Shown piece by piece: positions 5,234 through 40,413 of a stretch of 40,523 nucleotides of DNA. The stretch is from Clostridia bacterium (GTDB lineage Bacteria > Bacillota > Clostridia > Oscillospirales > SIG627). The translations under genes and the position numbers were made by a program. Under the pieces are notes generated by a model. It searched no databases. It was given only the letters and a program-made list of their open reading frames with translations, and was not told the origin of the DNA. Each line of letters starts with the position of its first letter. The stretch's first letter is position 1. The stretch is from assembly GCA_017453605.1 (NCBI GenBank), contig JAFTEP010000224.1, positions 1-40,523 of the forward strand. The letters run 5' to 3'.

Positions 5234-5242
5234 GGTGAAGCT

Positions 5243-5833
5243 TCAAAGAAAACAGCTCTCGTCCATATCGGAAAAGCTCAACGCCACGATCTCGTCGGCG
5301 AAAACGCGCTCGATCGCGGGAACGATCGCGCTTTTTATCTGCTCTTCGTCCGGAGCGAGGGAAAAGCCGTCGGTCATGAAACGGCCCTTTACGAGCGAGA
5401 ATTCCCTTTTGAATTTCAGGGCGTCGGGCAGCTCCGATCTGTCCGTTCCGAAAAGCCCCCAGACTTCGCCCGTCGTTTCGAAGTCTTTCCAATCCGAGAA
5501 ATAGGCGTCGTGCAGCCGGCGCAGCTCTTCCCGCGTCCTTTCGTCCCCGTCGCGGAGAAAAGGATGCGGTCCTTTGTGCGGGGTCATCACCGGGTCGATC
5601 AGAAGCTTTTTCGGGCCGCAGATAAGCATGGCGTAAAACCCCCCGAGCCGCGATCCGACGATGACGTCCGGATCGAAAGCGGTATCTCTCTCACGGAGAA
5701 AAGAGTGTATTTCGAGCGGAAACTCGGGCAGCTCCGGCAGCAGAAAATCGTGTCCGGGCATGGCTTTTGCGATGAGTTCTGCGGTTTTGCGCGCGTTCTC
5801 GTCGCCCGGCGCGCAGACGTAAAGGATCTTCAT
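5243..5833 (-). CDS. YqiA/UPF0227-like alpha/beta-hydrolase-fold protein, probably catalytically inactive
   Basis: VIVGSRLGGFYAMLI aligns, from my memory of the family, with the YqiA nucleophile elbow IVGSSLGGYYA, but has Arg in place of the Ser nucleophile. GGGAGG RBS upstream of the ATG at 5833. Confidence 0.55.
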   Translation of the reverse strand: MKILYVCAPGDENARKTAELIAKAMPGHDFLLPELPEFPLEIHSFLRERDTAFDPDVIVGSRLGGFYAMLICGPKKLLIDPVMTPHKGPHPFLRDGDERTREELRRLHDAYFSDWKDFETTGEVWGLFGTDRSELPDALKFKREFSLVKGRFMTDGFSLAPDEEQIKSAIVPAIERVFADEIVALSFSDMDESCFL

Positions 5834-22000: not shown

Positions 22001-25000
22001 GTCGGTCGAATAGTTCGAGAAGTAGACCTCGGTGCGGCTTCCGTTCCAGTTCTGGTCGAGGATCAGGACCTTGTCGGCCTTCCTGGTCGTGAAGGTGACG
22101 GTCAGACCCTTCTCGGTGTCGCTGTGGTTCTCCTTGAGCATATCGGTGATGCTGAAGGAGGCAAGGTTCTCTTTGTGTCCCGCGGGATGTCCGTCCTTCA
22201 CGCCGTTCAGATCGGTCTCCCAGTAGAGCATATAGCCCGTGCCGAGGTTGTTGGTGCCGGTGATCGTGATGTTCTTATCGGCGCCGTTGGGGATCGCGAG
22301 TCTGAGCGTCTCGCCCTGATGCACGACGATGTTGGAAAGGCTGTCGAGCGGGATGCGCTCGTAGACGCCTCTCTTCTCGTTGACGACTGTCAGCGCGGTG
22401 CCGTCGGTAGAAGTCAGGGAGAGAGTGATGTCTCCGTGGTTCTCCTCGGTGTTGTTGACGATGTTCAGATAGACCATCGGCTCCCAGACCGCGTAGATCG
22501 TGCGGTCCTCGTGTCTCTGGACCGCGATGATCGAGTCGGCGGGGTAGGTTGCGACGTAGTCGCCCTCGTCCGGTAGATCGTCAAAGCCGATGAGCAGATA
22601 GCCCGAAGGATGCCGGAAGTAGTTGACGCCGACCGGATCGAGCGCGTTGCCGGAAATATCGTCAGTCAGCTTGGTGGAGTAGCGGTAGAGGTGCGCGTTG
22701 ACGCTGCTCTGGATATCGCAGAACGCGATCGTGTCTGTGTCGGGGTCCATGACGAGTGTTCCTACGCCGTCCCAGTCGAGATCCCTCAGAGCTGAAAGCT
22801 CGGTGCCTTCGACCAGATCGTCCCCCTCGTAGTAGGAGCCCGTGGTGAGATATCCCGAGTTGGCGTCGAGAGTGAGATCGGTCACGTAGGGACGTCTGTA
22901 GGAGGAATCCTTCTCCTCGTAGACCGCCTGGATGTAGATGTAGCTCGACTTGTCGGCAAACGCGGCGCTGACGATGAAGTCGTCGCCCGGATCGTAGAAC
23001 TTTCCGGGTTCAAGAGGATTGTAGACGACGTTGCCGCCTCCGTCGACCGACTGGCTCACAAGACGCCAGCCGCGGAAGATATACTCGTCGGTAGTGAGGC
23101 CGTTCGCGGTAAGACCGGTGGGCTGCTGGAGGATCTCGGTCTTGGAACCGTCCGCGTAGTTGGATCCGGGTGCAAACGGATCCTCCCACTGATCCATGAA
23201 CATCGCGCCGTTGATGATCGTGCCGTCTTCCATCTTGTATTCGGGGATGTAATGGATGCGGTATCCGGCGTCCAGACGCCACTGGGCGCGCAGGGTCAGA
23301 GCCCCGGATACGGGAGTCGAGAAGTTGTAGGGCATGGAGCTGGTGCCGGTCTCGTTGCCTTCGTTGTCATAGAAGACTTCATACCAGCCTAAGAATTCAT
23401 AGTGCTCGCCGGAGAAGATATAGCGGTATTTCTGATCGGAAACGTAGGTGTTGCGCCAGGCGGCCTCGCCGAGGAGGGTGGTCCCGGAGATGTATCCGCC
23501 CTGCAGGTTGCCCTTGACCCAGTCGCGGTAGAACAGGTAGTACTGATGGAGCTCGTCCTCGGTCATATAGAGGGCGTTGCGCAGATCGGAGGGGAGAGAG
23601 CTTCCGTCGGTGGGCAGGTTCTGAGTGTTGACGTAGTAGTAGACGGTCTCGCCGTTTGCGGCGTAATCAGCGGCCGCGGCGTCGCTCAGAGGCACGTAGG
23701 TGCGGTTCAGGGCGTATTCGCCGACCATCTCGCCGTAGATGCCGTTGAAGTAGGTGGACTGGTCGCTCCTGTAGCCGGTGTCGGCCGCGCGTTCCAGATC
23801 TCCTTCTGAATTGTATATCTCGGAGCGGTTGAAGGTCGCGAAGGGCACCCACGAGGGATCGTAGGCGTCCGCGGAGTAGCTGACAGCGTTGCCGTCGGCG
23901 TCCCACCAGTAGTTGTTGTAGCCCTTGCGGTTCATCTCGGCGCCGTTGTTGTTGTAATTGTGGTTGACGTGGTCGATCTCGGCGCCGTTGGGGTCGATTT
24001 TGACGCGGTATCTGACGGGCTTGTAGATCGCGTAGAGGACGATCTGACCGTCCGGCATGGTCCTGTTGAAGTCGAAGGCGTTTCCGACTCCGTCGATGTT
24101 CTCATACCAGCCGGCGAAGGTGTGACCCTCGGGGGTGTTCTCTATCGCGAGCTGAGTATGGGCGTCGTCCGCCGCGGAGAGATCCTGCCCGTAGTAGTAG
24201 GTATAGGACCCGAGCTCATTGTTGTTTGAGTCCTTGAAGGTGAGCGTGTGATCGTTGGGCTGGAAGCGGAAGACCATTATCATACCGGTCCCGACCCCGG
24301 CAGCTTCAAGTTCGGCGACGGTGTAGGCGCCGTAGGTGTTGTTGCTGGCGGGGTTCAGCTCGGTGCCCGCGTTGTTGATGACCTTCGTGTCGACCAGGGT
24401 GTAGCCGTAGTAGGTCGGAGGCGTCTGATCCTTGGGGTTGGAGCCCGAGCCCGCGGTGATGACGAACTTCGAGGTCGGCTCGGAGGGATATTCGCGGGTG
24501 TCCACGTCCGCAAGGTAGATGCGGTAGAGGTACTTGTGAGAGTTGTTCAGTGTTGTGTACCTGCAGTGGAATTCCTGCGTGATCCCGTACTCGCCGGAGG
24601 TCGTGTTCGTGTCGTGGGCGGGATCGCTTATCGAGACCGCGGTATATGTATCGGGGTTGCCGTCCGTGCGGCCGCCGTTGACGTAGCCCGTGTTCCTGTT
24701 TCCTCCGGTGAGGATCAGGTCCTCGGAGATCGTCTCGAACAGACCCTTGATACTGGAGCTGACTCTGTACCAGTAGTAGCTGTCCTGCTGCGGGATCCAG
24801 CCGACGAACAGATAGGAGTTGGTGCCGTTGACTCTCTTCGGCTGAGTGCCGGGGTATTCGTCGATGATGGTCTCGCCGAATTTGCCGGTGATCTCGTAGT
24901 AGAAGACGATGTAGTTCGATCCGCCGTTTGTCGTGGTGTAGGTCCCGTTATATTCGGAGGGTCCGAACGGGTTGGTGTTGCCGAGAGAATAGCGGTTTGT

Positions 25001-28000
25001 CGTCAGGAAGCCGTCATATCCGCCGCCGTCTGCCGAATTGGTGACGTAGCTGACGAAATATTCCCAGGTGCCCTGCATCGTGGTCTGCCTGTAGAGCGCG
25101 CCGCCGTAGACCGCCATCGGGTAGACCGTGCCGGTATAGGAGTTCCCGTTATAGGAATAGGAATAGGTGTTGTTTTCTCCGGCGGGGACGGCGGGAATGT
25201 AGGCGCCAGCCGCGCCGTAGCCGCCCTCGGCGTCATAGAAATAGGAGGCGCCGCCGCGGGAAACGACGTGAGTCGCGTCGGTCTCGGGATAAGTCGTTGA
25301 GCCGCCGTTTTTGGCGCGGGTGTAGCGAGTGCCGGTGTAGGGCGCGCCATTCAGAGTGTACTCCCAGGATGTGGTGGAAGTGTCGGTCTTCTCGTAGAGG
25401 TAGGTGGTGTAATTGCCGCTTCTTAATGTGAAACGGTTGTAACCGCCGCCCGATCTGTAATACAGAGAATAGTTGCCCGATTTCAGACGGTTATTGTTTC
25501 CGTCCCAGGTCCAGTTTGTACTGTTGTCGTTTGTCGTGCTGATCTGGATCGTGGAGCTATTGTTGTTATTGCGAATAAAATAACCGCCGTTTGAGAACTT
25601 CCAGGCGTTCCCGTTCGCCGTTGCGGTCCAGACAGCGGTGGCGTTAACACCGCTCGAGGAAATATACGGCGCGTTGATGCTCGAGGTCGCCGCGTTGACC
25701 GTTATGCCGACGTTTGAGTAGTTGGCGCCGTTGTGTCCAAGCGCGTAACCGGAACCGTTGTTGTTTCTCGAAACGATCAAATACTCGTTTCCGTCTGTCA
25801 GAGTGGAAGTCAGCTTATATACAGGATCGCCCGGAACTGTCGTCGGAGTTCCGACGAGTTCGACGTAATCTCCGTTTGCGTTTACGCCGTAAAGCCCGCT
25901 TTCGGCGTTGGAAGAGGTCGAGCTGTAAACATATTCCGGCTTGTAAAGATGGACGGTGCTTTCGACGGTCGCGGTCAGGGGAACGTAGTCGCTGCCGATC
26001 AGGCCGTAGGGAACGCCGTTCGCGTCGGCGACGATCCAGTTGCCGTCGACGTCCTTGATGAGCGCGGTGTACGCGCCGTTGACGACGCCGTAGACCGTTC
26101 CGGTGTGCGACGCGGCCTCGGAGGGGGTCATCGTCGTGTAGGTGACGGTCGAGCCCGTGGTGCTCGTCTGGCGCGCGAAGCCGATATCGAATCTGAGCGT
26201 GTAGATATTGCGGTCGTAGTAGACGTTGACTATCGTGCTTCCGTCGCCCTCGATCGTCTGCTGGCGGATGCCGGACTGGACTCCGGCGGCGCTCTTGTCC
26301 TGATCCTCGCTGAGGTGGCAGAACCTGAGCTTGTTGTCCCTGTAGAGATCGGTGTTCGAGGCGATCTGCGTCGCCTCCGTCTGTGTGCCCGAAAGTCCCT
26401 GCAGAACTTCATAGGTCAGCAGGGTGTAGTTGTCGTCGTTGGCGTTCTGCAGCCAGTAGACTACGGTATAGGGCGTCAGTTCCGAGGTCCATTCGGCGTA
26501 GAGATTCAGAGATTCGAGGCCCTTGTAGACGTACAGCTTTCCGTTCTCGACCGTGAAGCGCTTGTGGGTCGTGCCCCCGACTGTGACTGAGTTGGTGTAA
26601 TTCGACGCGGTGTAGGCGCAGCTGTCGTCGCTCACCCATTGGGTCAGCTTGTAGGCCCTGCGGTTCTCGGTGACGGTCTGGAGATTGCCCGCATTGTCGA
26701 AGTAGTGGATCTCGACCGGCATCGCGGTGTCGATGTTGAGGATGTTTCCGTCGCTGTCGACTACCGCGTCGGCGTACCAGCCCTCAAGCTTGTAGCCGGG
26801 GCGCTTGCTGACGGGAAGCGTCTCGAACCAGGTCCCGCCGTCATCGTCGTTGGTGATGCGGTATTTTGCGGGGACGTAGGTCGCTCCGTTGCCGGATCTG
26901 CCGGTATTGAAGTAGATCCAGCGCGCTTCGTCGAAGACCGGGTAGAGATCTATCTCCTCCTCGACGAAATCGCTCTTCGAGAAGGTCGCGTAGTATTCGC
27001 CGTTCTGAGAAGTATTCGAGCTGTCGATCTCGTTTCCTTCAAGGTCGACCGTGCGGTAACGGTTCACGGTGAAGCCGTGTGCGTCGATGGTCTCCCAGCC
27101 GGAGAACACGTATTTGGTGGGGTTGGTGCTCGGGGAAGAGATGTTGCCTATGCGGACGGTGACCCGTTCGTCGCTTCCGAGAACGACCATCTTTCTCGCG
27201 TAGAGACTCGAAGCCAGATTGGGGTCGTCCTTGGTGCCGAGGTGGAAGTTGATGAAGTAGTAGTCCTCGTAGATCGGCGCCAGGAACATGTGCACTGTGC
27301 CCTCTTCGTCGAGCTCTCCGGAGCCGAAAGCGTCCTCTATCCTCCAGTAGACGATGTCTCCGACCTGAGGATCCGTTGAGGGAAGAGTCAGCGTTATTGG
27401 CTTTTCGAAGCTGAGCTTCATGGGATCGTCGGACCAGGTGTAGATGATCTGCGAGCCGTCGTCGGTGAAGCGTCCTTCGACGAGGTACCATCCGAAGAAG
27501 TACTGCTCAATAAGTCCGCCGTTCCCGTCGTCAACGCTTCTGTTCGCGGGGTTCTTGACAAATTCGAGGGATTCGCCGTTGATGAGGATCTGGGACGTCT
27601 GGTCTGTGCCGCCCTTGTTGGGGAACAGGTATTCGCCCGCCTGATATTCGACGGGGCTGAGAGTTTCGTACCCGCTGTCGGCGGAGGTGTGGTAGACGGG
27701 GTCGATGAAGTGGAACTGGACGCGCGCGGTGACGACTTTCTCGTCTCCCTCGTGGGCGATGACGACGTAAGCGGAGAAGCCGTCGGTCTTGAACTCTACG
27801 GTGCTTCCGCTGACGGACGCGTTCATGATCTCTTTGTCTTCTCCGAAGTGGACGACTTCGATCTCTTCGCCGCTGTTTTCAAGATCCTCGTCGATGAGCT
27901 CGATCCTGACGGCGACGGCATTGTTGGGCTGATATTTCTCGTTCGTGTCGGGATCCCTGAGAGTGATGTCGAAAACTCTCGCGAGAGAGAAATCCTTCGG

Positions 28001-28333
28001 GTCGGAGCCCAGAAGACGGGCGCTCTCGCTCACATATTCCTCGTAGGAAAGCGCGTAAGAGTCGCCGACGGAAAAATCCGTCACCGAGATCCCGTATTCT
28101 TCCTCAAGCTCGGTGCCCTGCTTGACGATCTCCCTCACGTCGAGAACGGCGTCCGAGGGGATGCCCGACGAGCCGTCGAACGATACCGTGACTCGGTAGT
28201 TGTTGCCGTCTGAGGCGGTCAGGGTATAGGTGCGCGTCAGCGCGGACACGGCGTACTGCAGAAGCGCGCCGAATCCGGTGAAGAGCATTATGAAGACGCA
28301 GATCAGTGAAATGATTCTTTTAGATTTTTCCAT
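19094..28333 (-). CDS. giant secreted/surface protein (3079 aa): Listeria-Bacteroides (Flg_new) repeats, lectin-like N/S/T-rich insert, Ig-like and SpaA/Cna-B-type domains; no LPXTG
   Basis: N-terminal signal/anchor MEKSKRIISLICVFIMLFTGFGALLQYAV. Many GW-type repeat signatures (FFGWY, FSGWE, LEGWY, FAGWY, FLGWY, FRGWR, FVGWD). C-terminal prealbumin-like modules (FFRKIDGFGNALPGAVFSLY, IFRKINTSFQSLSGAKFDIL). Ends ...ITAKRLSSAP with no sorting signal. Confidence 0.85.
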   Translation of the reverse strand: MEKSKRIISLICVFIMLFTGFGALLQYAVSALTRTYTLTASDGNNYRVTVSFDGSSGIPSDAVLDVREIVKQGTELEEEYGISVTDFSVGDSYALSYEEYVSESARLLGSDPKDFSLARVFDITLRDPDTNEKYQPNNAVAVRIELIDEDLENSGEEIEVVHFGEDKEIMNASVSGSTVEFKTDGFSAYVVIAHEGDEKVVTARVQFHFIDPVYHTSADSGYETLSPVEYQAGEYLFPNKGGTDQTSQILINGESLEFVKNPANRSVDDGNGGLIEQYFFGWYLVEGRFTDDGSQIIYTWSDDPMKLSFEKPITLTLPSTDPQVGDIVYWRIEDAFGSGELDEEGTVHMFLAPIYEDYYFINFHLGTKDDPNLASSLYARKMVVLGSDERVTVRIGNISSPSTNPTKYVFSGWETIDAHGFTVNRYRTVDLEGNEIDSSNTSQNGEYYATFSKSDFVEEEIDLYPVFDEARWIYFNTGRSGNGATYVPAKYRITNDDDGGTWFETLPVSKRPGYKLEGWYADAVVDSDGNILNIDTAMPVEIHYFDNAGNLQTVTENRRAYKLTQWVSDDSCAYTASNYTNSVTVGGTTHKRFTVENGKLYVYKGLESLNLYAEWTSELTPYTVVYWLQNANDDNYTLLTYEVLQGLSGTQTEATQIASNTDLYRDNKLRFCHLSEDQDKSAAGVQSGIRQQTIEGDGSTIVNVYYDRNIYTLRFDIGFARQTSTTGSTVTYTTMTPSEAASHTGTVYGVVNGAYTALIKDVDGNWIVADANGVPYGLIGSDYVPLTATVESTVHLYKPEYVYSSTSSNAESGLYGVNANGDYVELVGTPTTVPGDPVYKLTSTLTDGNEYLIVSRNNNGSGYALGHNGANYSNVGITVNAATSSINAPYISSSGVNATAVWTATANGNAWKFSNGGYFIRNNNNSSTIQISTTNDNSTNWTWDGNNNRLKSGNYSLYYRSGGGYNRFTLRSGNYTTYLYEKTDTSTTSWEYTLNGAPYTGTRYTRAKNGGSTTYPETDATHVVSRGGASYFYDAEGGYGAAGAYIPAVPAGENNTYSYSYNGNSYTGTVYPMAVYGGALYRQTTMQGTWEYFVSYVTNSADGGGYDGFLTTNRYSLGNTNPFGPSEYNGTYTTTNGGSNYIVFYYEITGKFGETIIDEYPGTQPKRVNGTNSYLFVGWIPQQDSYYWYRVSSSIKGLFETISEDLILTGGNRNTGYVNGGRTDGNPDTYTAVSISDPAHDTNTTSGEYGITQEFHCRYTTLNNSHKYLYRIYLADVDTREYPSEPTSKFVITAGSGSNPKDQTPPTYYGYTLVDTKVINNAGTELNPASNNTYGAYTVAELEAAGVGTGMIMVFRFQPNDHTLTFKDSNNNELGSYTYYYGQDLSAADDAHTQLAIENTPEGHTFAGWYENIDGVGNAFDFNRTMPDGQIVLYAIYKPVRYRVKIDPNGAEIDHVNHNYNNNGAEMNRKGYNNYWWDADGNAVSYSADAYDPSWVPFATFNRSEIYNSEGDLERAADTGYRSDQSTYFNGIYGEMVGEYALNRTYVPLSDAAAADYAANGETVYYYVNTQNLPTDGSSLPSDLRNALYMTEDELHQYYLFYRDWVKGNLQGGYISGTTLLGEAAWRNTYVSDQKYRYIFSGEHYEFLGWYEVFYDNEGNETGTSSMPYNFSTPVSGALTLRAQWRLDAGYRIHYIPEYKMEDGTIINGAMFMDQWEDPFAPGSNYADGSKTEILQQPTGLTANGLTTDEYIFRGWRLVSQSVDGGGNVVYNPLEPGKFYDPGDDFIVSAAFADKSSYIYIQAVYEEKDSSYRRPYVTDLTLDANSGYLTTGSYYEGDDLVEGTELSALRDLDWDGVGTLVMDPDTDTIAFCDIQSSVNAHLYRYSTKLTDDISGNALDPVGVNYFRHPSGYLLIGFDDLPDEGDYVATYPADSIIAVQRHEDRTIYAVWEPMVYLNIVNNTEENHGDITLSLTSTDGTALTVVNEKRGVYERIPLDSLSNIVVHQGETLRLAIPNGADKNITITGTNNLGTGYMLYWETDLNGVKDGHPAGHKENLASFSITDMLKENHSDTEKGLTVTFTTRKADKVLILDQNWNGSRTEVYFSNYSTDDNYVGLPYTLPGTGTRLAWTFVGWDEDPSLRPDIENGTDLPEYLASNADSLLIASMTDFFEAKDTDHNDVVTLYAIWSSDDKANTVRVYKLIPEPGKQDKEFDFTVSFKGSYRNDEAHINGTITERTSPVISLTNEQYMVIVTEVIDGESTGKAKVTQTIQKYGTNDQPIGSALVVTTGDINVSAVVNFYLEIKVVEAEYTNYITTSSVESEIIPDSLTTNGNLLSWTNYTTGGTVFYTNARKTAEVTVKKVLKNHPADMAFTFRGSYTLTEDGVTVTKTLQNISVLSSSSTGTAFAEKIPVGAILTVTEIADNSFDVTAAAQNGSADTDAADNVYKFTVTADETLTFTNTLKSYPVRIVLVGFDGTTTYTDVEAQFSLRADVSSIVNHKYTTPDDNLIYDGILSVGEYSLIEHWVQSGYLGLDRDVTLTVSGDDTVTSDDAMHIVITGNKTDGFLVTVYNQKTVDLSIEKTLIDPLLGSGRTFYFAVSYSNTLNGVTETVNKSGENAIALASGSRTTFTVPIGAANLTVAEEVSRRVSSSSLVTIAETYETYYRITNGSNEVVPADTGSSYTYTTVAASNDKDLISFTNKAKTVDVTVEKEVTADDTSGTFTFVATLSKGATGIPGYAIFVNGTPADDSDDVLTDASGQYSFTLRHGGTMVLTLPVGARLQVRETGLSGTTDPTLTLEDDYQTTAAAYYTAGGGYTGSTSWAENSRSYTIVSVPGDDLTLTFTNGSGGKEVFFRKIDGFGNALPGAVFSLYTSYSDAVAKGTSGRVSLTVGTTKTDTVTSATTLDVNGFNVGFKVPNGVYYMTEIGTVTGCRTNSYIYRVTVGAAGTTVEGITLPAGSDYLVERMSDSTTVDAVPDIPVYGLLNESRAERKVIFRKINTSFQSLSGAKFDILRVDMTVVASDCVSGETGAFWIGKLPYGKYYLKETEAPAGYNDAPVWFEVRVDSSGITAKRLSSAP

Positions 28334-32638: not shown

Positions 32639-32738
32639 AATTTGAAAAAGAAATACTCCGGGCGCTTTTTGACGTTCACCCGAAACCACTTGCGGCAAAA
32701 GCTCCCGACAGATCTCCCCAACCCGGCAGGTGATCGTT

Positions 32739-33989
32739 ATGGCATACAGCGAGCTTATAAAGAATTTCGGCAGGATCCGCGATTATATGCGCGAGTTTTA
32801 CGTTTACGGCTTCAAGAGCCGGGACGAATACACGCTCAAAAGCGCCAGATCCTACGACGACGAGCGGAGGCGGCTGGAAAGCTGGCTCGGCGACTATATG
32901 GGATTCAGGCAGACCCCCGACGGGAAGAAAGTGTTTCTTTCCATCGACAGCAGGATCTGCCGTCACAATCCGCTTTACAAGGCGTGGAAGGCGAAGAGCT
33001 TCACAGACGGCGACATAACTCTGCACTTTCTCTTGTTCGATATCCTCTGTTCACCTGAGATCAGCCTGACCCTGAACGAGCTGACCCAAAAACTCGACGA
33101 ATATCTTGAATTTTTCGGCGGGCCGAGGACCTTCGACGTCTCCACCGTCCGCAAAAAGCTCAAAGAATACGTTTCGGAGGGGATAATCGTCGCCGAAAAG
33201 CGCGGGAAGACGCTTTGCTACCGCCGCGCCGAGGGCGATCTCACGTTCGATCCCGACGCGCTCGCGTTCTTTTCGGAGGTCGCGCCGGTCGGAGTCGTCG
33301 GCTCGTACCTTCTCGACAAACAAAGCCCCTCCCCCGACCGCTTCGCCTTCAAGCATCACTACATAACAGGGGCGCTCGACAGCGAGATCGTCTGTCAGCT
33401 CCTGGACGCTGTATCTTCCGGGCGGTATATCACTCTCGGGACCGTGAACCGCAGGAAGGACAGGCTCTCGGAAAGCCGCGTCGTGCCGCTCAGGATATTC
33501 ATAAGCGTGCAGAGCGGCAGACACTATCTGATGGCGTTCGCGCCTCGATTCAGGCGCATCACCTCCTACCGGATCGACAACATCCTTTCCGTGAAAGAGG
33601 ACGAGGTCTGCCCGGAGTTCGGCGAGCTGAAACAGAGGCTCGAAGAGATGGAGCCGCATATCTGGGGAGTCAGCACTCAGGGCGGATCGGGCGAGCGGAT
33701 AGAGCACGTCGAGTTCACCGTGAGATATTCTCCCGAGGAGCCATTCATACATCAGCGGCTCGAGCGCGAGAAGCGCTGCGGAAAAGTCGAAAGGCTTTCG
33801 GACACTTCGAGCAGATTTTCCGCCGACGTTTATGACGCGACCGAGCTGGTCCCGTGGATCAGGACCTTCATCTGCCGCATAACCGACGTGAGTTTTTCCG
33901 ACAAGGCGCTCGAAAGAAGGTTCAGGCAGGATATTCTGGATATGTACGCGCTCTACGGCTTGGGATCGGAAGGCGGTGACGGGAAATGA
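32739..33989 (+). CDS. WYL-domain protein A (N-terminal YGFKSR-type region + wHTH, WYL, WCX-like C-terminus)
   Basis: WYL core GRHYLMAFAPRFRRITSYRIDNILSV. The ATG at 32739 lies 5 nt after AGGTGA; the track start at 32730 is a GTG inside the RBS. Confidence 0.75.
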   Translation: MAYSELIKNFGRIRDYMREFYVYGFKSRDEYTLKSARSYDDERRRLESWLGDYMGFRQTPDGKKVFLSIDSRICRHNPLYKAWKAKSFTDGDITLHFLLFDILCSPEISLTLNELTQKLDEYLEFFGGPRTFDVSTVRKKLKEYVSEGIIVAEKRGKTLCYRRAEGDLTFDPDALAFFSEVAPVGVVGSYLLDKQSPSPDRFAFKHHYITGALDSEIVCQLLDAVSSGRYITLGTVNRRKDRLSESRVVPLRIFISVQSGRHYLMAFAPRFRRITSYRIDNILSVKEDEVCPEFGELKQRLEEMEPHIWGVSTQGGSGERIEHVEFTVRYSPEEPFIHQRLEREKRCGKVERLSDTSSRFSADVYDATELVPWIRTFICRITDVSFSDKALERRFRQDILDMYALYGLGSEGGDGK

Positions 33990-34894
33990 TCTTCAGCGAG
34001 CTTTACGGCGCCTACTACAACACGGTCGCGCGCCTTCTGAAAGCGGCGGTCGCGACCCCTCTCACCAAGAGCGATATACGGCGGATAACCGGGGAGACCG
34101 CGTTCGGCGAAAGCATTCTGAACATAGAGCCTGCGATCACGGAGGGAAGATGGCAGCTGATACGCCCGGACGGCGCCACGCCGATCCGCAGCGCGCCGAC
34201 GATGCCGCTCACGACCCTCGAAAAGCGCTGGCTGAAAGCGGTCTGCCTTGATCCGAGGATGAAGCTCTTTTACGACGAGCCGCCCGAGATCGGGGACGTC
34301 GAGCCGCTGTTTTCGCCCGGCGATATCTCGGTGTTCGACAGATATTCCGACGGCGATCCGTATGAGGACGAGGGCTACATCGCCCGCTTCCGGCTTATCC
34401 TGGACGCGATAAGAAAAGAATACCCGATCAAAATAGAAATGACCAACCGCAAGGGCGGCGTGTCGCGCTTCGTGATGCTGCCGGATCACCTGGAATATTC
34501 CGAAAAGGACGACAAGTTCAGGCTTCTGGGCTCCGGCAACAGATCCGGCAGGACCGTGAACGTCGGGAGGATAACAAAGTGCGAGGCGTATCCCGGAAAG
34601 CTCTCGTTTTCGACGCCGGCGCCTCAGGACGAAAAGGAAACGATCGAATTTATCCTGACCGACAAGAGGAACGCCCTCGAGCGCGCGCTCTTACATTTCG
34701 CGCACTTTGAGAAGCAGGCGAAAAGGATAGACGAAACGCACTATTCGGTCGGCCTGACCTACGACAAACCGGACGAAACGGAGCTTGTCATCCGCGTTCT
34801 GTCCTTCGGACCGATGATAAAGGTGACCTCTCCCGAGAGCTTCGTCGGGCTGATAAAAGAAAGGCTTGAAAAACAAAAAAGCTGCGGACTCTGA
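33986..34894 (+). CDS. WYL-domain protein B (paralogue, translationally coupled to A)
   Basis: WYL core IKIEMTNRKGGVSRFVMLPDHLEYSEKDDKFRLLGSGNRSGRTVNVGRITKCE with a WCX-like C-terminus. 4-nt ATGA overlap with protein A. Confidence 0.7.
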   Translation: MIFSELYGAYYNTVARLLKAAVATPLTKSDIRRITGETAFGESILNIEPAITEGRWQLIRPDGATPIRSAPTMPLTTLEKRWLKAVCLDPRMKLFYDEPPEIGDVEPLFSPGDISVFDRYSDGDPYEDEGYIARFRLILDAIRKEYPIKIEMTNRKGGVSRFVMLPDHLEYSEKDDKFRLLGSGNRSGRTVNVGRITKCEAYPGKLSFSTPAPQDEKETIEFILTDKRNALERALLHFAHFEKQAKRIDETHYSVGLTYDKPDETELVIRVLSFGPMIKVTSPESFVGLIKERLEKQKSCGL

Positions 34895-34913
34895 CGGGTT
34901 CGCAGCTTTTTTT
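34875..34913 (+). terminator. intrinsic terminator after the WYL pair
   Basis: A-run, stem GCTGCG ... CGCAGC spanning the stop codon, then T7. Confidence 0.7.
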
Positions 34914-34915
34914 CC

Positions 34916-34944
34916 GTGATTTTTCCGAAAAAAGGTGTTAAAAT
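34916..34944 (+). promoter_or_regulatory. candidate promoter for the structured leader / DUF2828-RtcB transcript
   Basis: -35 GTGATT (34916-21), 17-nt spacer, extended -10 TGTTAAAAT (34936-44). The predicted TSS near 34951 is just before the first RNA module. Confidence 0.45.
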
Positions 34945-34959
34945 TTCCTCGCAAACCAA

Positions 34960-35036
34960 AAGACGCCGACAGCGACAAAAATGTATTGGCAACGGATCGT
35001 CACGATCCCTGCGGGTTCAAGCCCCGGAGGCGTCTT
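34960..35036 (+). ncRNA. structured RNA module 1 (77 nt) with T-arm-like hairpin
   Basis: 8-bp closing stem AAGACGCC/GGCGTCTT. Internal 6-bp hairpin GGATCG-TCA-CGATCC. T-arm-like hairpin GCGGG-TTCAAGC-CCCGG, with one G-G mismatch, stacks directly on the closing stem. Confidence 0.4.
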
Positions 35037-35041
35037 GAAAA

Positions 35042-35095
35042 AAGACACGCACAGCAAAGATTGCCGGATCAGATTTTGAGGATTTAACGTGTCTT
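35042..35095 (+). ncRNA. structured RNA module 2 (54 nt hairpin domain)
   Basis: 8-bp closing stem AAGACACG/CGTGTCTT enclosing 38 nt that include a small GCAA-AGA-TTGC hairpin. Confidence 0.3.
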
Positions 35096-35103
35096 GTTTC
35101 TGT

Positions 35104-35175
35104 ACGCCGGGAGTTCAGCGGCAGAGCGGGAGCCTTGAAACTCCCGTAAGGCGGGTCCGACTCCCGCTCGGCGTC
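35104..35175 (+). ncRNA. tRNA-like cloverleaf (72 nt) with 8-nt anticodon loop; candidate Y-RNA-like tRNA mimic
   Basis: 7-bp acceptor stem ACGCCGG/TCGGCGT. D-arm GTTC-AGCGGCA-GAGC with A14, G18G19 and A21. Anticodon arm GGGAG-CCTTGAAA-CTCCC. 5-nt variable loop. T-arm GCGGG-TCCGACT-CCCGC. Deviations from a real tRNA: G8, C55, no nucleotide 26, an 8-nt anticodon loop and no CCA. Confidence 0.5.
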
Positions 35176-35186
35176 ACAAAAATCCA

Positions 35187-35269
35187 AAGGCGCGGACAGC
35201 AATAGTGATGACAGCTGAAAAAGCAGGTGACTGAAAATCGCCGTTCGCGGATCATATCCGACGCGCCTT
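35187..35269 (+). ncRNA. structured RNA module 4 (83 nt), may be part of the DUF2828 mRNA 5' UTR
   Basis: 8-bp closing stem AAGGCGCG/CGCGCCTT ending 40 nt before the start codon. Contains small internal hairpins such as GGAT-CAT-ATCC. Confidence 0.3.
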
Positions 35270-35309
35270 GAAACATTTTTCATAAAAGTCAGAACAAGAG
35301 GTGATAAAA

Positions 35310-36800
35310 ATGCTCGAATACTTAAAGAATGAAGCGAATATGACCCAGACCGAGAACGGAGCGGCAACTTATCTGTCGACGGGCTCCGACTGCCTCGACC
35401 TCTTCGCGACCGTCGGCGCGCTCCGCCGCGAAAACGAAGAGAAGATCGAAAACGCATTCGTGCGCGCATTCGCCGAAAACCCCGACCTCGCGATGAAGAT
35501 CCTGTTCTTCGCAAGAGACGTCCGCGGCGGGCTCGGCGAGAGGCGCGTCTTCAGGGTCGCGCTGAGACGTTTCAGTTTTTTCAAGCCCGAAAGCGTAAAA
35601 AAGAATCTTCCCTACGTCGCCGAGTTCGGCCGCTTCGACGACCTGCTCACGCTCATCGGCACCTCCTGCGAAAACGAAGCTCTTGATCTCATCAAAGAGC
35701 AGTTTGGCAGGGACAGGGACGCCATGGAAAAAGACAAGCCCGTTTCGCTTCTTGCAAAATGGCTGCCGTCCGTGAACGCGTCGAACGCCGAAACAAAAAA
35801 GCTCGGCAAAAAGATCGCGAAAGCGCTCGGGCTGAGTGAGGCGGAATACAGAAAAACTTTCGCCGCGCTCAGAAAAAAGATCCGCATAATCGAAAATAAC
35901 CTCCGCGAGAGGGACTACACCTTCGATTACTCGGCTCAGCCCTCGAGAGCCCTTTTCAAGTACAAAAGCGCGTTCTACCGCAACGACGGGGAAAGGTACA
36001 GAGAATTTCTGAAGAAAGCCGCGTCGGGCGAAGCCGTGCTCCACGCCGACAACGTCTCGCCCTACGAGCTTGTCGAGCCTTATCTTGAAAAAAACTGGTT
36101 CAGCGGCATGAAAAGCTTCGCAAGGTCCGCGAGCCCCGGGGAGCAGGAGACTCTAAACGCGACCTGGGCGGCTCTTCCCGATTTCGGCGGCGACGGGAAC
36201 GCCCTCGCCGTGATCGACACCTCGGGCTCCATGTACTGGGCGGCATCTCCCGTTCCCGCCTCCGTCGCGCTCTCGCTCGGACTGTATTTTGCTGAAAGAA
36301 ACAAGGGCGCGTTTGGAAACCACTTCATAGAGTTCTCCGCCGATCCTCAGCTCATCGAGCTCAAGGGCGAGACCTTCTTCGACAGGCTGACCTACGCCGC
36401 GTCCTTCAATCAGGTCGCGAACACCGACCTGGAGGCGGTGTTCGATCTCGTTCTCAACGCGGCTCTCAAAAACGGAGTGCCTCAGGAGGAATTGCCCGCG
36501 AAGCTCGTCATCGTCTCCGATATGGAGTTTGACCAATGCGTTGATAACGCGAATGAACTCAATTTCGCCAACGCGAAGAAGAAATACGAAGCGCACGGCT
36601 ACAGGCTTCCGCAGATAGTCTTCTGGAACGTCGCCGCCAGACATCGCAATCAGCCCGTCAGTCTCAACGAACAGGGCGTCGCGCTCGTTTCGGGCGTCAC
36701 TCCGCGCCTGTTCGGAATGGTCGCGGGAGAGCTCGAATCGCCATACGCCTTTATGCTCGAGGTGCTGGGAAGCGAACGCTACGAAAGGATCTCGGCGTGA
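35310..36800 (+). CDS. DUF2828-family vWA protein (Ro60/TROVE-like candidate RNA-binding protein)
   Basis: N-terminal TENGAATYLSTGSDCLDLF and AKWLPSVNAS signatures of DUF2828. C-terminal vWA domain with MIDAS VIDTSGSM. The ATG at 35310 lies 5 nt after AAGAGGTGA; the track start at 35301 is a GTG in the RBS. Confidence 0.75.
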   Translation: MLEYLKNEANMTQTENGAATYLSTGSDCLDLFATVGALRRENEEKIENAFVRAFAENPDLAMKILFFARDVRGGLGERRVFRVALRRFSFFKPESVKKNLPYVAEFGRFDDLLTLIGTSCENEALDLIKEQFGRDRDAMEKDKPVSLLAKWLPSVNASNAETKKLGKKIAKALGLSEAEYRKTFAALRKKIRIIENNLRERDYTFDYSAQPSRALFKYKSAFYRNDGERYREFLKKAASGEAVLHADNVSPYELVEPYLEKNWFSGMKSFARSASPGEQETLNATWAALPDFGGDGNALAVIDTSGSMYWAASPVPASVALSLGLYFAERNKGAFGNHFIEFSADPQLIELKGETFFDRLTYAASFNQVANTDLEAVFDLVLNAALKNGVPQEELPAKLVIVSDMEFDQCVDNANELNFANAKKKYEAHGYRLPQIVFWNVAARHRNQPVSLNEQGVALVSGVTPRLFGMVAGELESPYAFMLEVLGSERYERISA

Positions 36801-36861: not shown

Positions 36862-38133
36862 ATGTTTGAAATAAAAGGCAAAATCAACACGGCGATCTGC
36901 TACGCGAAGGTCGTGGAGGACAGCGCGATAGAGCAGATAAAAAGGATGTGCGACTATGAGCTGACCTCCGGCAGCCGGATCAGGATCATGCCCGACGTCC
37001 ACTCCGGGAAGGGCTGCACCATCGGGACCACGATGACCGTGACCGACAAGGCGTGCCCCAACATAGTCGGGGTAGATATAGGCTGCGGTATGTACACAGT
37101 GAAGCTCGAAGAAAAAGAGGCCGATCTGACTAAGATAGACCAGGCCGCGCACTTTATACCCTCCGGGATGAACACCTGGGAGGGACGGATAGAGAAATTC
37201 GATCTGACCGGGCTGAAATGCTTCCGCTCTCTGAAGGATTCCAGAAGGCTCGAACGCTCTCTCGGCACCCTCGGCGGCGGCAACCACTTCATCGAGATCG
37301 ACAGGGCGTCCGACGGGAGCCTGTATCTTGTGATCCACTCGGGGAGCAGGAATCTCGGCAAGCAGGTCGCGGAGATCTATCAGCAAATCGCCGTCGACCT
37401 GCACAGCGGCAAGGAAGAATACTTCAACAGAAGAAATGAGGTCATCGAGACCTACAAGGCACAGGGCAGACGCGCCGAGATCCAGGACGCGCTCAAAAGC
37501 CTCGCTGAGGAATACAAAAAAAGAGAGGCTGACGCGCCGGAGGATCTGTGCTGGCTCTACGGAGACTTTCTCAAAGACTACCTGAACGACGTCGCGATAT
37601 GTCAGGATTTTGCGCGCCGCAGCAGGGAGAAGATGGCCGGGATCATGCTCGAAAAGACCGGGCTGAGGGCTGTCGAAGCTTTCCACACCGTTCACAACTA
37701 CATAGACACCTCCGAAATGATCCTCAGAAAGGGCGCGATCGCCGCGCACGCCGGCGAAAAGGTGCTGATCCCGATAAACATGCGCGACGGCTCCGTTCTC
37801 GCCGTCGGGAAAGGCAATCCCGAATGGAACTTCTCGGCTCCCCACGGAGCGGGAAGGCTCATGTCGAGGAGCAGGGCGAGAGAGGAGATAGACCTGGAGG
37901 CGTACAAGGCGTCTATGGAGGGGATCTATACCACATCCGTCAGCCTCAGCACCATCGACGAGGCTCCCATGGCGTATAAATCCATCGACGATATAATCGA
38001 CGTGATAAGAGGATCGGTCGACGTCGTCGATATAATGAAGCCCGTCTACAACTTCAAGGCGTCCGGCGACGATGTCCCCTGGAAGAAAAAGAGCCCGGAG
38101 GACGACGCCGATCTTTCTGCGGATGACGCTTGA
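36862..38133 (+). CDS. rtcB: RNA 3'-phosphate/2',3'-cyclic-phosphate ligase RtcB
   Basis: RtcB signatures MPDVHSGKG, VGVDIGCGM, GGGNHFIEI, HSGSRNLG, HNYI, PINMRDG and APHGAGR. Confidence 0.9.
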   Translation: MFEIKGKINTAICYAKVVEDSAIEQIKRMCDYELTSGSRIRIMPDVHSGKGCTIGTTMTVTDKACPNIVGVDIGCGMYTVKLEEKEADLTKIDQAAHFIPSGMNTWEGRIEKFDLTGLKCFRSLKDSRRLERSLGTLGGGNHFIEIDRASDGSLYLVIHSGSRNLGKQVAEIYQQIAVDLHSGKEEYFNRRNEVIETYKAQGRRAEIQDALKSLAEEYKKREADAPEDLCWLYGDFLKDYLNDVAICQDFARRSREKMAGIMLEKTGLRAVEAFHTVHNYIDTSEMILRKGAIAAHAGEKVLIPINMRDGSVLAVGKGNPEWNFSAPHGAGRLMSRSRAREEIDLEAYKASMEGIYTTSVSLSTIDEAPMAYKSIDDIIDVIRGSVDVVDIMKPVYNFKASGDDVPWKKKSPEDDADLSADDA

Positions 38134-38334: not shown

Positions 38335-40413
38335 TCACAGAAACTTCACCCTGCCCTCGTCTGTGAGTTCGAGCGCGGCTTCGAAGGGCTTTCCCGCCTT
38401 CGAGAAGAAGCCGCCTATCTTCGGGGAGCGCCGTTTTTCGAGAAGCCACGCCGCGAGCGTCTTCGGGATCACGCGGCCCGCGATCCTGCGCGGTATATTG
38501 AGCCTGCATCCGTTCTCCTTATATCCCGAGCACGAATATCCGTATCGTGATACCTTGACTTCGCCTCCGCACAGCGGACAGACGCCGACCGGATCGCCGT
38601 AGAAGCCCGTGTCCTTTTTGGGATCGGGAGCGGAGGTGATGACCTCGGCGATCTCCTTTTTTGCCATTTCGAGGCTCTCGTCTATGCTGATCTCGCCGCG
38701 GTAGACCTTTTTGAGCGCCTGACCGAGCTGCGAGGTCTTGTATTTGTCCATAGAAATGTTCATATCTCCGAGCGCCTCTATCAGAAATTCGCCCGGTCTT
38801 TCTATCGTATATACGTCGTTTTTCAGCAAAATATATCCGCTCTTTCTCGCGTTGTCGATTATTCCCGTGCGCGTCGCCTCCGTCCCGAGCTCGAGCCCCT
38901 CGAAGATCGCGCGGTAGTCCTCGTCGTCGCTGTCCGCCTTCGCCTTATCGTCGCGGAATGGGTTTTTGAGGTAGTTGTTGAGAGTCTCTATCGTGTAGTG
39001 TTTGGGCGGAACCGTCTCCTTCTCGACCGGCTCGAAACTGACCTCTATTTTCTCTCCTTTTGTGAGATTGGGCAAAAACTTATCCTTTGGCGTGTAGAAA
39101 TCGAACTTCGTCCAGCCGGGCTGACGCATCGCGGAGCCCTTTATGCAAAACTCCTCCATGCCTCCGACGTCGATCGTGACCTCCGTTCTGTCCACTATGC
39201 AGTCCTCGCTGCAGAACACGGCGACAAAGCGCTTCAGGACCGCGGAATAAACGAGCTTTTCCCTTTCGGAAAGCGCGTCCTTCGAGGGGATCTTGTAGGT
39301 CGGCGTCAGCGCGGAGTGGCTTTCGATCTTGCTGTCGTCGAAGATCGTCTTTTTGAACTTGAATTCGACCGGGTATCCGAGAGCGGCGACTTTTTTGATG
39401 ATAGTCTTCATCTTGTCCTGTTCGTTTGTCGCGACGTATTCGCTGTTGGTCCTCGGATATGTGACGTAGCCCGCTTCGTAGAGCTTCTGCAGGATCTCGA
39501 GGCTCTCGGTCATCGGCATCTTGAACTTCTTGCCGAGAAAGCTCTGCAGGCGCGAAAGGGAATACAGTTTACCCGGAGAAAGGGTCTCCTTTTTCTTTTT
39601 GACGTCCTTCACGACGCCTCCCGCCGCGTTGTATTTTTCGCAGAGCGCCTTCGCTTCTTCGATGCGGTCGGACGGGAACTTTTCCTTGCTGACAAGCTCG
39701 ATCTCGCCGTCGGAGCGCACGGTCTTCGACACCGGCGAGAAATACTTTTCCGGAACGAAATTCCTGATCGCCATATCGCGGTCGTATATCGCCTTTACCA
39801 CAGGCACGATGACCCTTCCGACTCTGAGAAGGGTGCCGGTCTTCAGGGTGGCGTAGCGCGTGAGGTTGACGCCGTAGAGCCAGTCGATGTAGGTGCGCGC
39901 GAAGCCCTCGTCGGCGAGAGGCTTGTATTCGTCCTCGCTCTTCATATTCTTCAGTGCTTCGCGGATAGTGACGTCGGTCTGGTCCGGCAGCCAGAGCCGC
40001 AAAAAGGGCTTCGGCTCCGGGGCGGCCTGCTCGACGCAGATACGGATGATGATCTCGCCCTCGCGGTCGGAGTCTCCGGCGTTCACGAGGGTGTCGACGT
40101 CGCTGCGGCGGCACAGCGTTTTTATGATCTCGAACTGCTTCTTGACTCCCGGATCGACGGTCTTGTCGTCCTTTCTTCTGAGGCGGAAAACGAATTTGTC
40201 CGGGAAGCAGGGGAGGACAGACGCGTCCCAGCGCGGCAGACGTTTTTGTTCGGGAAGATAGTCCTCGACGTCGCAGAGCCCGAAAAGATGCCCGAACGCC
40301 CAGGTGACGATATATTCGCTTGAAGAATAGAACCCGTCCTGTTTTTTCATATCGCCTATCGCGGCGATTATGTTTCTGGCAAGGCTCGGCTTTTCGGCGA
40401 TTATCAGCTTCAT
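38335..40413 (-). CDS. topB: DNA topoisomerase III (type IA) with C-terminal zinc-ribbon
   Basis: TOPRIM motifs (LIIAEKPS, DSDREGE). Active-site region GYVTYPRTNS. C-terminal CPLCGG...CSGYKENGC. GAAGGAAAAG RBS. Confidence 0.85.
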   Translation of the reverse strand: MKLIIAEKPSLARNIIAAIGDMKKQDGFYSSSEYIVTWAFGHLFGLCDVEDYLPEQKRLPRWDASVLPCFPDKFVFRLRRKDDKTVDPGVKKQFEIIKTLCRRSDVDTLVNAGDSDREGEIIIRICVEQAAPEPKPFLRLWLPDQTDVTIREALKNMKSEDEYKPLADEGFARTYIDWLYGVNLTRYATLKTGTLLRVGRVIVPVVKAIYDRDMAIRNFVPEKYFSPVSKTVRSDGEIELVSKEKFPSDRIEEAKALCEKYNAAGGVVKDVKKKKETLSPGKLYSLSRLQSFLGKKFKMPMTESLEILQKLYEAGYVTYPRTNSEYVATNEQDKMKTIIKKVAALGYPVEFKFKKTIFDDSKIESHSALTPTYKIPSKDALSEREKLVYSAVLKRFVAVFCSEDCIVDRTEVTIDVGGMEEFCIKGSAMRQPGWTKFDFYTPKDKFLPNLTKGEKIEVSFEPVEKETVPPKHYTIETLNNYLKNPFRDDKAKADSDDEDYRAIFEGLELGTEATRTGIIDNARKSGYILLKNDVYTIERPGEFLIEALGDMNISMDKYKTSQLGQALKKVYRGEISIDESLEMAKKEIAEVITSAPDPKKDTGFYGDPVGVCPLCGGEVKVSRYGYSCSGYKENGCRLNIPRRIAGRVIPKTLAAWLLEKRRSPKIGGFFSKAGKPFEAALELTDEGRVKFL

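Follow-up and report, generated by a model that had tools for sequence, protein, structure and literature searches.

We analyzed a 40,523-nucleotide (nt) stretch of a Clostridia bacterium genome (assembly GCA_017453605.1, contig JAFTEP010000224.1, positions 1 to 40,523; hereafter the window). At positions 35104–35175 of its forward (+) strand lies a free-standing transfer RNA (tRNA)-like cloverleaf with an 8-nt anticodon loop, upstream of genes for a Ro60-like DUF2828 protein and the RNA ligase RtcB. From the structure and its homologues in related bacteria we conclude with high confidence that the cloverleaf represents a genuine RNA gene, conserved and tRNA-like but not decoding, and with similarly high confidence that it descends from tRNA-Phe. 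We are equally confident that it belongs to an array of small structured RNAs, all on one strand, within the leader of the DUF2828/RtcB operon; its neighbors there are modules 1–3, closed by 8-bp stems and marked by the sequence ACAGCAA. With a probability of roughly one half, the cloverleaf would serve as a tRNA-shaped processing unit, whose ends are cut so that neighboring RNAs are released and a stable, non-decoding RNA is left.

Structure and conservation of the cloverleaf

The element reads, on the + strand, ACGCCGG-GA-GTTC-AGCGGCA-GAGC-GGGAG-CCTTGAAA-CTCCC-GTAAG-GCGGG-TCCGACT-CCCGC-TCGGCGT-C. Every geometric feature listed in the original prediction, which had been made from the sequence alone, was present: a 7-bp acceptor stem (ACGCCGG/TCGGCGT) with a final G-U pair, a 4-bp D stem (GTTC/GAGC) with the D loop AGCGGCA, a 5-bp anticodon stem (GGGAG/CTCCC) enclosing the 8-nt loop CCTTGAAA at 35134–35141, a 5-nt variable loop (GTAAG), and a 5-bp T stem made of G and C throughout (GCGGG/CCCGC) beneath the 7-nt T loop TCCGACT. 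The overall architecture of a tRNA is retained in the acceptor stem, the D arm, the anticodon stem, the T stem, and the T loop. The departures from tRNA rules that had been pointed out at the same time are likewise all in the sequence: G8 in place of U8, C55 in place of U55, no nucleotide 26, no encoded CCA, and the 8-nt loop CCUUGAAA where a canonical tRNA has a 7-nt anticodon loop. The cloverleaf begins 7 nt past the CTTG end of module 2, ends 11 nt ahead of module 3, and lies on the same strand as the DUF2828 gene, 135 nt upstream of it.

Detectors of tRNA genes place the element at their margin. The Rfam tRNA model (RF00005) aligns end to end with 35104–35175 (model positions 1–71) at 28.9 bits (E = 5e-4). 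A scan of the whole window against Rfam at the gathering threshold listed nothing because this score is 0.1 bit under the gathering score of 29.0 bits. ARAGORN did not call the cloverleaf at default settings; at 95% of its thresholds it reported tRNA-?(Gln|Ser) with the 4-base anticodon ttga (UUGA), so that relaxed tRNA detection, suggested originally as a check, did recover the element. Permissive Rfam scans of the intergenic region and of one related locus, L024, returned tRNA matches plus noise only. The homologue in L024 passes the RF00005 threshold (42.6 bits).

To assess conservation, we collected 80 loci of different Clostridia species by homology to the DUF2828 protein of the window. 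BLASTN of the cloverleaf against these loci found T-arm fragments only, and nhmmer and a covariance model were needed to detect homologues; ARAGORN was also used to find relatives. Cloverleaf homologues occur in 15 loci, all at the same place upstream of the DUF2828/RtcB genes. The closest group, class A, comprises the window copy and those of L001, L008, L016/L017, L024, L054, L060, L062, L064, and L075; its homologues score 73–96 bits with the covariance model, which was built from ten of them. Further class A copies are present in three metagenome contigs (L081–L083, found with a pattern that left the loop free), all within DUF2828 arrays, and in two of seven additional loci from close relatives (L093/L094 and L096). 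An exact-pattern scan for class A found none in viral contigs, and its three metagenome matches are too few to settle whether the anticodon loop is under selection.

In the ten-sequence alignment, 90.5% of the cells assigned to cloverleaf pairs are paired, compared with 37–48% when the 3' partners are slid by 1–3 columns. Eight pairs have changed on both sides, and none of 500 shuffles reached the observed covariation score. All four stems remain paired in the ten homologues, with compensatory double changes in three of the four. Between the window and its nearest relative, L008, the acceptor stem carries compensated changes (A-U for G-C and G-U for U-A), and the anticodon stem has two compensated changes (GGGAG/CTCCC for GGGGA/TCCCC). 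The T loop UCCGACU, with its C55, is common to the window, L008, and L093, and the T stem beneath it covaries (GCGGG/CCCGC versus GCAGG/CCTGC). Because of the conserved pairing, the covariation, and the compensated changes between the window and L008, the cloverleaf is not a product of chance folding, and it is not a remnant in free decay either. The conservation in other DUF2828-RtcB loci on which the original prediction depended is thus borne out.

The homologues also separate what is general in the family from what is particular to the window. No class A copy has nucleotide 26, an irregularity that is family-wide, whereas several of the other listed departures are limited to the window and a few relatives: U8 and U55 are present in most homologues, the C55 of the window is shared by L008 and L093 alone, and G8 and the 8-nt loop are minority features. 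Most homologues have a 7-nt anticodon loop, CUNAAAA, in which N (position 34) varies freely between G, C, U, and A. The discriminator is mostly C, as opposed to A in the tRNA-Phe copies described below. Together, three family-wide departures, namely the lack of nucleotide 26, the variability of position 34, and the changed discriminator, argue against decoding, and they favor the earlier view of the element as a tRNA mimic.

Descent from tRNA-Phe is indicated by what occupies the same slot in other arrays. Four loci (L015, L040, L065, and L069) have there a canonical tRNA-Phe(GAA) that retains U8 and nucleotide 26, has A as its discriminator, and encodes CCA; the anticodon arm and the first nucleotides of the variable loop (GGGGA-CUNAAAA-UCCCC-GUG) are common to it and class A. 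The occupants of the slot form a series from canonical tRNA-Phe through class A copies that lack nucleotide 26 and copies with 8-nt loops (window, L054, and L062) to the unit of L055 and the minimal copies of L008. The free tRNA-like unit of L055 (2787–2862) has an encoded CCA and an anticodon arm that is a 6-bp stem capped by GCAA, and thus the slot tolerates complete loss of the anticodon loop. Two L008 copies (2245–2318 and 2815–2880), in the slot after CTTG, consist of the acceptor stem and the UCCGACU T arm only, with a single hairpin instead of the D and anticodon arms. Constant across these lineages are the 7-bp acceptor stem stacked on the T arm and the placement between units. The acceptor/T-arm helix is the main determinant of tRNA end-processing.

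The RNA array and its genes

When read side by side, the intergenic regions of the loci resolve into tandem arrays of units. We defined a unit by an 8-bp closing stem (5' strand AAGNNNNN, 3' strand its complement plus G) with A[ACT]AG[CT] 1–3 nt past the 5' strand; in the units, ACAGCAA stands 1–3 nt after the 5' closing-stem strand. A strict search for this frame in 81 sequences returned 177 units in the orientation of the genes, against 2 in the reverse orientation. At least one unit is present in 70 of the 81 Clostridia sequences, and the largest array has seven units under the strict definition. In a test that presupposes no stem, 194 of 389 + strand ACAGCA sites have a downstream 8-bp partner for the upstream 8-mer, compared with 21 for a reversed 8-mer, 39 for a shuffled 8-mer, and 14 of 163 sites on the − strand.

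Three modules of the window, all on the + strand, were recovered by the strict module finder. Module 1 (34960–35037) has the closing stem AAGACGCC/GGCGTCTT, followed by GACAGCGAC, and holds a GGATC...GATCC hairpin and a T-arm-like GGGTTCAAGCCCC; its predicted fold shows the closing stem (z = −2.9), and homologous modules occur in L001, L020, and L082. A weak Rfam match to mascRNA, which is tRNA-like, falls on module 1 (34962–35034) and not on the cloverleaf. Module 2 (35042–35096) is of a short hairpin type, with the closing stem AAGACACG/CGTGTCTT and CACAGCAAA; its fold shows the closing stem, with an overall z-score of only −0.95. Module 3 (35187–35270), with the closing stem AAGGCGCG/CGCGCCTT and then GACAGCAAT, encloses a degenerate tRNA-like domain that has a Phe-type anticodon arm (GGTGA-CTGAAAA-TCGCC) and the hairpin CGGAT-CAT-ATCCG (fold z = −2.7). 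Aligned with embedded tRNA-like modules of nine other loci, module 3 has 94.9% of its cells paired and nine pairs changed on both sides, which are distributed over the closing stem and the anticodon-like and T-like arms. Its counterpart in L024 reaches 39 bits on the Rfam tRNA model (positions 5–66).

Embedded and free tRNA-like domains differ in their placement. The embedded ones (24 cases) have ACAGCA 0–13 nt upstream and CTTG 1–10 nt downstream; the free ones, between frames (18 cases), have CTTG mostly 4–9 nt upstream and the next ACAGCA 13–20 nt downstream. Every cloverleaf homologue begins 4–9 nt after the ...CCTTG 3' end of a module, with the next ACAGCA within 13–20 nt. The window cloverleaf itself has no stem+ACAGCAA frame; the nearest ACAGCA is 47 nt upstream, inside module 2. 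Its flanks were considered as an extension of the acceptor stem that might act as a frame; some pairing is possible in the window, but it is not conserved in L024 or L008, and this arrangement was rejected. Since the stem+ACAGCAA signature tracks DUF2828 genes and the cloverleaf lacks it, the modules, rather than the cloverleaf, are likely to be the Y-RNA equivalents of the DUF2828 Ro-like protein. Ro60 makes contact with the Y RNA stem on its 5' strand (PMC4201824). By analogy, and because the pairing of DUF2828 with the frame, like the interleaving of these RNAs with tRNAs or tRNA look-alikes, is conserved over a very wide range, the frame is a probable binding site of the DUF2828 protein. 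None of 4,227 Rfam families matches the stem+ACAGCAA units.

Some further observations concern the arrays. A second type of embedded cloverleaf (for example, L001 2383–2454, L010 2673–2743, L022 2677–2747, and L024 1669–1745) has a conserved anticodon stem (CACCUGC/GCAGG), the T loop GGUGNNAUUCC, and highly variable letters in the anticodon loop. Embedded domains related to module 3 carry Phe-like (CUGAAAA, CUAAAAA) or Met-like (CUCAUAA) loops. Other copies in the window of ACAGCAA and of the promoter-box motif TTCCGTGAT (32561, 31561, − strand) are accompanied by neither a matching stem nor a −10 box and seem fortuitous. An antisense open reading frame (ORF) at 35017–35514 (TTG start, 165 aa), which overlaps the RNA array and the start of the DUF2828 gene, was not treated as a gene.

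The array is preceded by two regulator genes on the + strand. The first (32730–33989) encodes a WYL-domain protein of 419 aa (Pfam WYL, E = 9.8e-6; PADLOC WYL, E = 2e-12), and the second (33986–34894), whose start overlaps the stop of the first, a WYL/WCX-like protein of 302 aa (PADLOC WYL, E = 2.3e-7; weak Pfam WCX, E = 0.004). A WYL pair is upstream on the same strand in 56 of the 80 related loci. Between this pair and module 1 lies a conserved + strand promoter/operator box (34898–34944), in which GTTCGCAGCTTTTT-TTCCGTGAT (34898–34920) is followed, after 18 nt, by the −10-like TAAAAT (34939–34944). A longer form of the box, TTTCCGTGAT, is on the + strand in 31 of 81 sequences and on the − strand in one; it forms part of GTTCGCARCTTTTT-TTCCGTGAT and immediately follows the second WYL gene. 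The box always has TAnAAT 17–18 nt further on, and the first module comes next. All seven extra loci of close relatives have TTCCGTGAT, and the box is also found in L088–L097. A scan with the sigma-70 consensus did not call the conserved box, which we nevertheless predict to be a promoter at which the array transcript starts. The box recalls the promoters that depend on PafBC, a pair of WYL proteins of actinobacteria. A terminator scan found none on the + strand between the array and the DUF2828 start codon, and the array and mRNA would form one precursor, probably controlled by the WYL pair. Copies of the box also stand ahead of further genes located downstream of RtcB (L004 5784, L008 5856, L058 4672, and L065 1759), which suggests a small regulon of the WYL pair.

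The gene downstream of the array (35310–36800, +) encodes a protein of 496 aa with Pfam DUF2828 and DUF7788/vWA-like domains. Foldseek comparison of its AlphaFold2 model (pLDDT 72) with the PDB gave ten top matches that were all Ro60/TROVE structures (E = 1.5e-5 to 3e-4, TM 0.36–0.52, probability 1.00), including 9l5y, 9kop, 1yvr, 1yvp, 2nvo, and 9nep, over about 510–570 alignment columns. The model fits the Ro60 plan of a helical-repeat ring and a vWA-like domain. The protein has no Pfam TROVE match, and a family profile search of PDB sequences found no relative; on the basis of the model, it is Ro-like by fold. The association with a Ro-like protein and RtcB that had been proposed for the cloverleaf agrees with these matches. 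The RtcB gene follows (36862–38133, +; 423 aa; Pfam RtcB, E = 4.9e-57) and directly adjoins the DUF2828 gene in 52 of the 80 loci. Across these loci, the first gene is preceded by a non-coding gap of 542 nt (median), which in the longest case extends to 2.7 kb. NCBIfam names neither the DUF2828 protein nor the WYL proteins, and PADLOC recognizes the WYL domains only.

In several close relatives (L088, L090, and L095), the end of rtcB is overlapped by a gene for an RlaP-family nucleotidyltransferase (PF10127, RNA-ligase-associated Pol-beta); the window lacks it and has, after rtcB, a divergent topoisomerase gene instead (38335–40413, −). Elsewhere in the window, a third WYL+WCX regulator gene (6503–7486, −) is unlinked to the RNA array, and an ORF of 3079 aa (19094–28333, −) with a C-terminal SpaA prealbumin-like domain and a Listeria-Bacteroides repeat encodes a giant surface protein. 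Overall, the window resembles an ordinary Clostridia-type chromosome and not a phage.

Possible roles of the cloverleaf

In the mechanism that we propose, the array would be transcribed as a single precursor, in which RNase P would cut at the 5' end of the cloverleaf (35104) and RNase Z, because CCA is not encoded, would cut after the discriminator C35175. The two cuts would separate module 2 from module 3 and the mRNA and leave a stable RNA of about 72–75 nt, which may have lost its decoding features because only the tRNA shape was needed. Several findings support such a processing unit. The slot between modules is constant to within a few nt in the 15 loci; the acceptor/T-arm helix is kept while the anticodon end ranges from canonical to absent; and pairing, covariation, and double compensatory changes show the structure to be under selection. 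Units alternate with tRNA-like elements also in the coliphage Alf5, and in the Bacillus phage Thrax3 modules lie within and after a tRNA array. The promoter box upstream of the first module, with no terminator found before the DUF2828 gene, is consistent with the proposed precursor.

Other findings weigh against this role. Most module-module junctions have no tRNA-like element, and a free tRNA or tRNA-like unit is present in only about 17 of the 80 arrays and in two of the seven close relatives, so that release of the modules cannot generally depend on the cloverleaf. The anticodon stem is maintained by compensatory changes, and C32, U33, and A35–A38 are kept in most class A loops, although RNase P and RNase Z need neither the loop nor the anticodon stem. 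Also, the 8-nt loop CCUYGAAA recurs in two sub-lineages, that of the window and that of L054/L062, which may reflect convergence and hints at a function for the anticodon loop. The isolated cloverleaf fold, at −29.2 kcal/mol, is 4.9 kcal/mol higher than the predicted minimum of −34.1 kcal/mol, and its z-score relative to shuffled sequences is only −1.6. Finally, we infer co-transcription, the cleavage sites, and accumulation of the product from sequence. The two sub-lineages with CCUYGAAA differ in their acceptor and T arms; judged against the near-identical L083, the 8-nt loop of L062 seemingly arose by substitutions, at the cost of one stem pair.

It is possible, though unlikely, that the cloverleaf, once excised, mimics tRNA-Phe in trans and serves as a decoy, a sensor, or a substrate of RtcB. 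An anticodon-loop nuclease induced by stress or phage would cut the cloverleaf, and RtcB would reseal it, or the fragments would signal to the WYL regulators, so that damage to real tRNAs would be buffered or reported. This would account for the genes of RtcB and a Ro-like protein adjoining the cloverleaf, for an anticodon arm kept by compensation with a loop that is conserved except at position 34, for the recurrence of CCUYGAAA, and for the Phe-type or Met-type loops in the embedded domains of neighboring modules. The products of RNase P and RNase Z are not known to be RtcB substrates, however, and no nuclease gene is evident in the conserved cassette. Furthermore, the GCAA-capped stem of L055 and the two L008 copies without D and anticodon arms preserve the slot and the acceptor/T arm all the same, and the cloverleaf is absent from about 80% of otherwise complete arrays. 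In favor of a role in trans, tRNA fragments are reported to induce the Salmonella rsr-yrlBA-rtcBA operon (Hughes et al., 2020, PMC7790460), and WYL domains are ligand sensors (PMC4012209). The original prediction had considered the cloverleaf itself to be a Y RNA of the YrlA type, which would bind the DUF2828 ring and tether it to RtcB or another effector. In favor of this view, the cloverleaf resembles tRNA and shares its strand with a gene, 135 nt downstream, whose product is Ro-like by predicted fold; YrlA RNAs are tRNA mimics encoded no more than 4 kb from Ro60 genes (PMC4201824). Near its 5' end YrlA carries the Ro-binding motif GNCGAAN0-1G, and its tRNA-like domain is permuted (V, T, acceptor stem-loop, D), with the Ro-binding stem replacing the anticodon stem (Chen et al., 2014, PMC4201824). 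By contrast, the cloverleaf is unpermuted, with free 5' and 3' ends, its own anticodon arm, and no long terminal stem. No GNCGAA, and hence no such motif, is found anywhere in 34895–35309, and the best overlapping match to Rfam YrlA (RF02553; 35123–35250) scores 15.9 bits (E = 1.7) against a threshold of 69. Moreover, the stem+ACAGCAA signature is carried by the three neighbors of the cloverleaf and not by the cloverleaf, which is present in a minority of DUF2828 loci only. Identity with YrlA is therefore improbable, and this part of the original prediction is not supported.

Two further explanations look to the tRNA ancestry of the cloverleaf. That it is a decaying, functionless tRNA-Phe pseudogene in the leader might be suspected from a score just under the tRNA threshold, the loss of several universal positions, the more stable alternative fold, and its dispensability in most arrays; but the compensatory double changes in three of four stems, the unusual T loop UCCGACU retained over a covarying T stem in three loci, and a placement relative to the flanking modules that is fixed to a few nt in 15 loci leave this explanation with little probability. 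A working tRNA, reading quadruplets (+1 frameshifting) or serving as a stress-induced spare for UUN codons, is less probable still and hardly to be expected, despite the canonical tRNA-Phe(GAA)-CCA in the slot of four related arrays, class A anticodons that are all NAA, and the 4-base UUGA read by ARAGORN. In addition to the missing nucleotide 26 and the mostly C discriminator, the nucleotide at position 34 makes the anticodon of one and the same body either Phe (GAA, AAA) or Leu (CAA, UAA), the loop varies in length and in L055 is a GNRA cap, and the window copy also lacks U8 and U55.

Relation to known Ro/Y-RNA systems

The locus resembles the Salmonella rsr-yrlBA-rtcBA operon in that the gene of a Ro-type ring protein is next to rtcB, in that several small RNAs are encoded alongside on the same strand, some with tRNA-like domains, and in the presence of a ligand-sensing regulator, which is RtcR with its CARF domain in Salmonella and a WYL pair here. 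It differs in that the protein is not Rsr, but a DUF2828 protein without a Pfam TROVE match that is Ro-like by fold only. The RNA signature is an 8-bp stem with ACAGCAA rather than GNCGAAN0-1G, and the tRNA-like domains are unpermuted, with a closing stem that extends the acceptor end instead of replacing the anticodon stem. Unlike in Salmonella, the arrays reach at least seven units, and the cloverleaf is a separate, free unit outside the Y RNA.

A bacterial precedent for the processing unit that we favor comes from Deinococcus radiodurans, where Yrn2, tRNA-Asp, and Yrn1 are made as one precursor (PMC4201824). There, as here, a tRNA-shaped unit stands between Y RNAs (or their candidate equivalents) upstream of a Ro gene, and tRNA end-processing would separate the Y RNAs. 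The unit of Deinococcus is a genuine tRNA-Asp, whereas that of the window is a tRNA-Phe derivative without decoding features, and co-transcription in the window is a prediction. Mycobacterium smegmatis also makes YrlA and YrlB from a common precursor; its YrlA is cleaved by RNase P and receives a CCA tail (PMC4201824), and the 7-bp acceptor-like stem of the cloverleaf would similarly suit tRNA-processing enzymes. The cleavage in M. smegmatis is inside the Y RNA and both halves are bound by Rsr, in contrast to a tRNA-like unit that stands alone between Y-like units. Outside bacteria, RNA ends are also defined in this manner: in mascRNA/MALAT1 and in mitochondrial tRNA punctuation, a tRNA shape cut by RNase P and RNase Z defines the ends of the neighboring RNAs. 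A small, stable, non-decoding by-product, as we propose for the window, is a further similarity. These cases belong to another domain of life and share no ancestry with the cloverleaf, which has a bacterial tRNA-Phe origin and a Ro/RtcB context.

The pairing of DUF2828 with these RNAs extends to phages. DUF2828 homologues are present in 706 phage records, mostly of large, tRNA-rich phages; phage homologues, that of the Mycobacterium phage DirkDirk among them, carry the annotation "Ro-like RNA binding protein". In all three phage loci inspected, from Bacillus, Mycobacterium, and Escherichia phages, the stem+ACAGCAA signature is beside the DUF2828 gene. In the Bacillus phage Thrax3 (L085), the gene follows an array of 18 tRNAs; the 455-nt gap before it (2546–3000) holds three units, and a fourth is inside the tRNA array (957–1075). 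In the Mycobacterium phage DirkDirk (L084), the gap after the Ro-like gene (3908–4266) contains two ACAGCAAT motifs, one CAGCAAT, and pieces resembling tRNA arms. In the Felix O1-like coliphage Alf5 (L087), the DUF2828 gene precedes the tRNA array, and an unannotated 400-nt gap inside that array (5202–5600) contains, in this order, a unit, a tRNA-like element (5296–5367, 28.5 bits), a unit, and another tRNA-like element (5455–5528, 48 bits). A cellular counterpart of the phage tRNA-array arrangement is found in a member of the Anaerovoracaceae (L036, 52–2860), in which an array of 19 tRNAs is directly upstream of the DUF2828 gene, with units among the last tRNAs.

Ro60 and the Y RNAs constitute an RNA surveillance system that has long been studied and is poorly understood. 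To our knowledge, the bacterial Ro/Y-RNA systems described so far are of the Rsr/YrlA type only. The locus reported here points to a parallel system with a different Ro-like family, DUF2828, and its own RNA signature, in arrays that interleave RNA units with tRNAs or tRNA look-alikes. The small structured RNAs seem to be partner RNAs, not described before, of a Ro60-like protein whose gene adjoins that of RtcB; we found no description of DUF2828-associated RNAs in the searchable literature, although an earlier mention in Burroughs and Aravind (2016) or Sim et al. (2020) is possible. The cloverleaf shows a tRNA gene turning into a structural or processing element.

Because the DUF2828-RNA pairing is also found in phages, ideas on the interplay of a Ro-like protein, tRNA-shaped RNA, and RtcB can be tested in Escherichia coli and M. 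smegmatis; Alf5, as a Felix O1-like phage, and DirkDirk, as a cluster L mycobacteriophage, offer entry points to the protein-RNA pairing in tractable hosts. A broader and quite tentative reading, which we regard as unlikely in its entirety, is that DUF2828 and the stem+ACAGCAA RNAs form a second, as yet undescribed Ro/Y-RNA system, present both in gut Clostridia and in large phages rich in tRNAs, among them Bacillus phages, cluster L mycobacteriophages, and coliphages of the Felix O1 type, with tRNA look-alikes as baits or reporters for anticodon-loop nucleases. The cloverleaf would be the free tRNA-Phe-type member among look-alikes with varied anticodon loops, which RtcB would mend together with real tRNAs. 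If this reading is true, the locus would be a device for the surveillance and repair of RNA damage in conflicts between viruses and their hosts.

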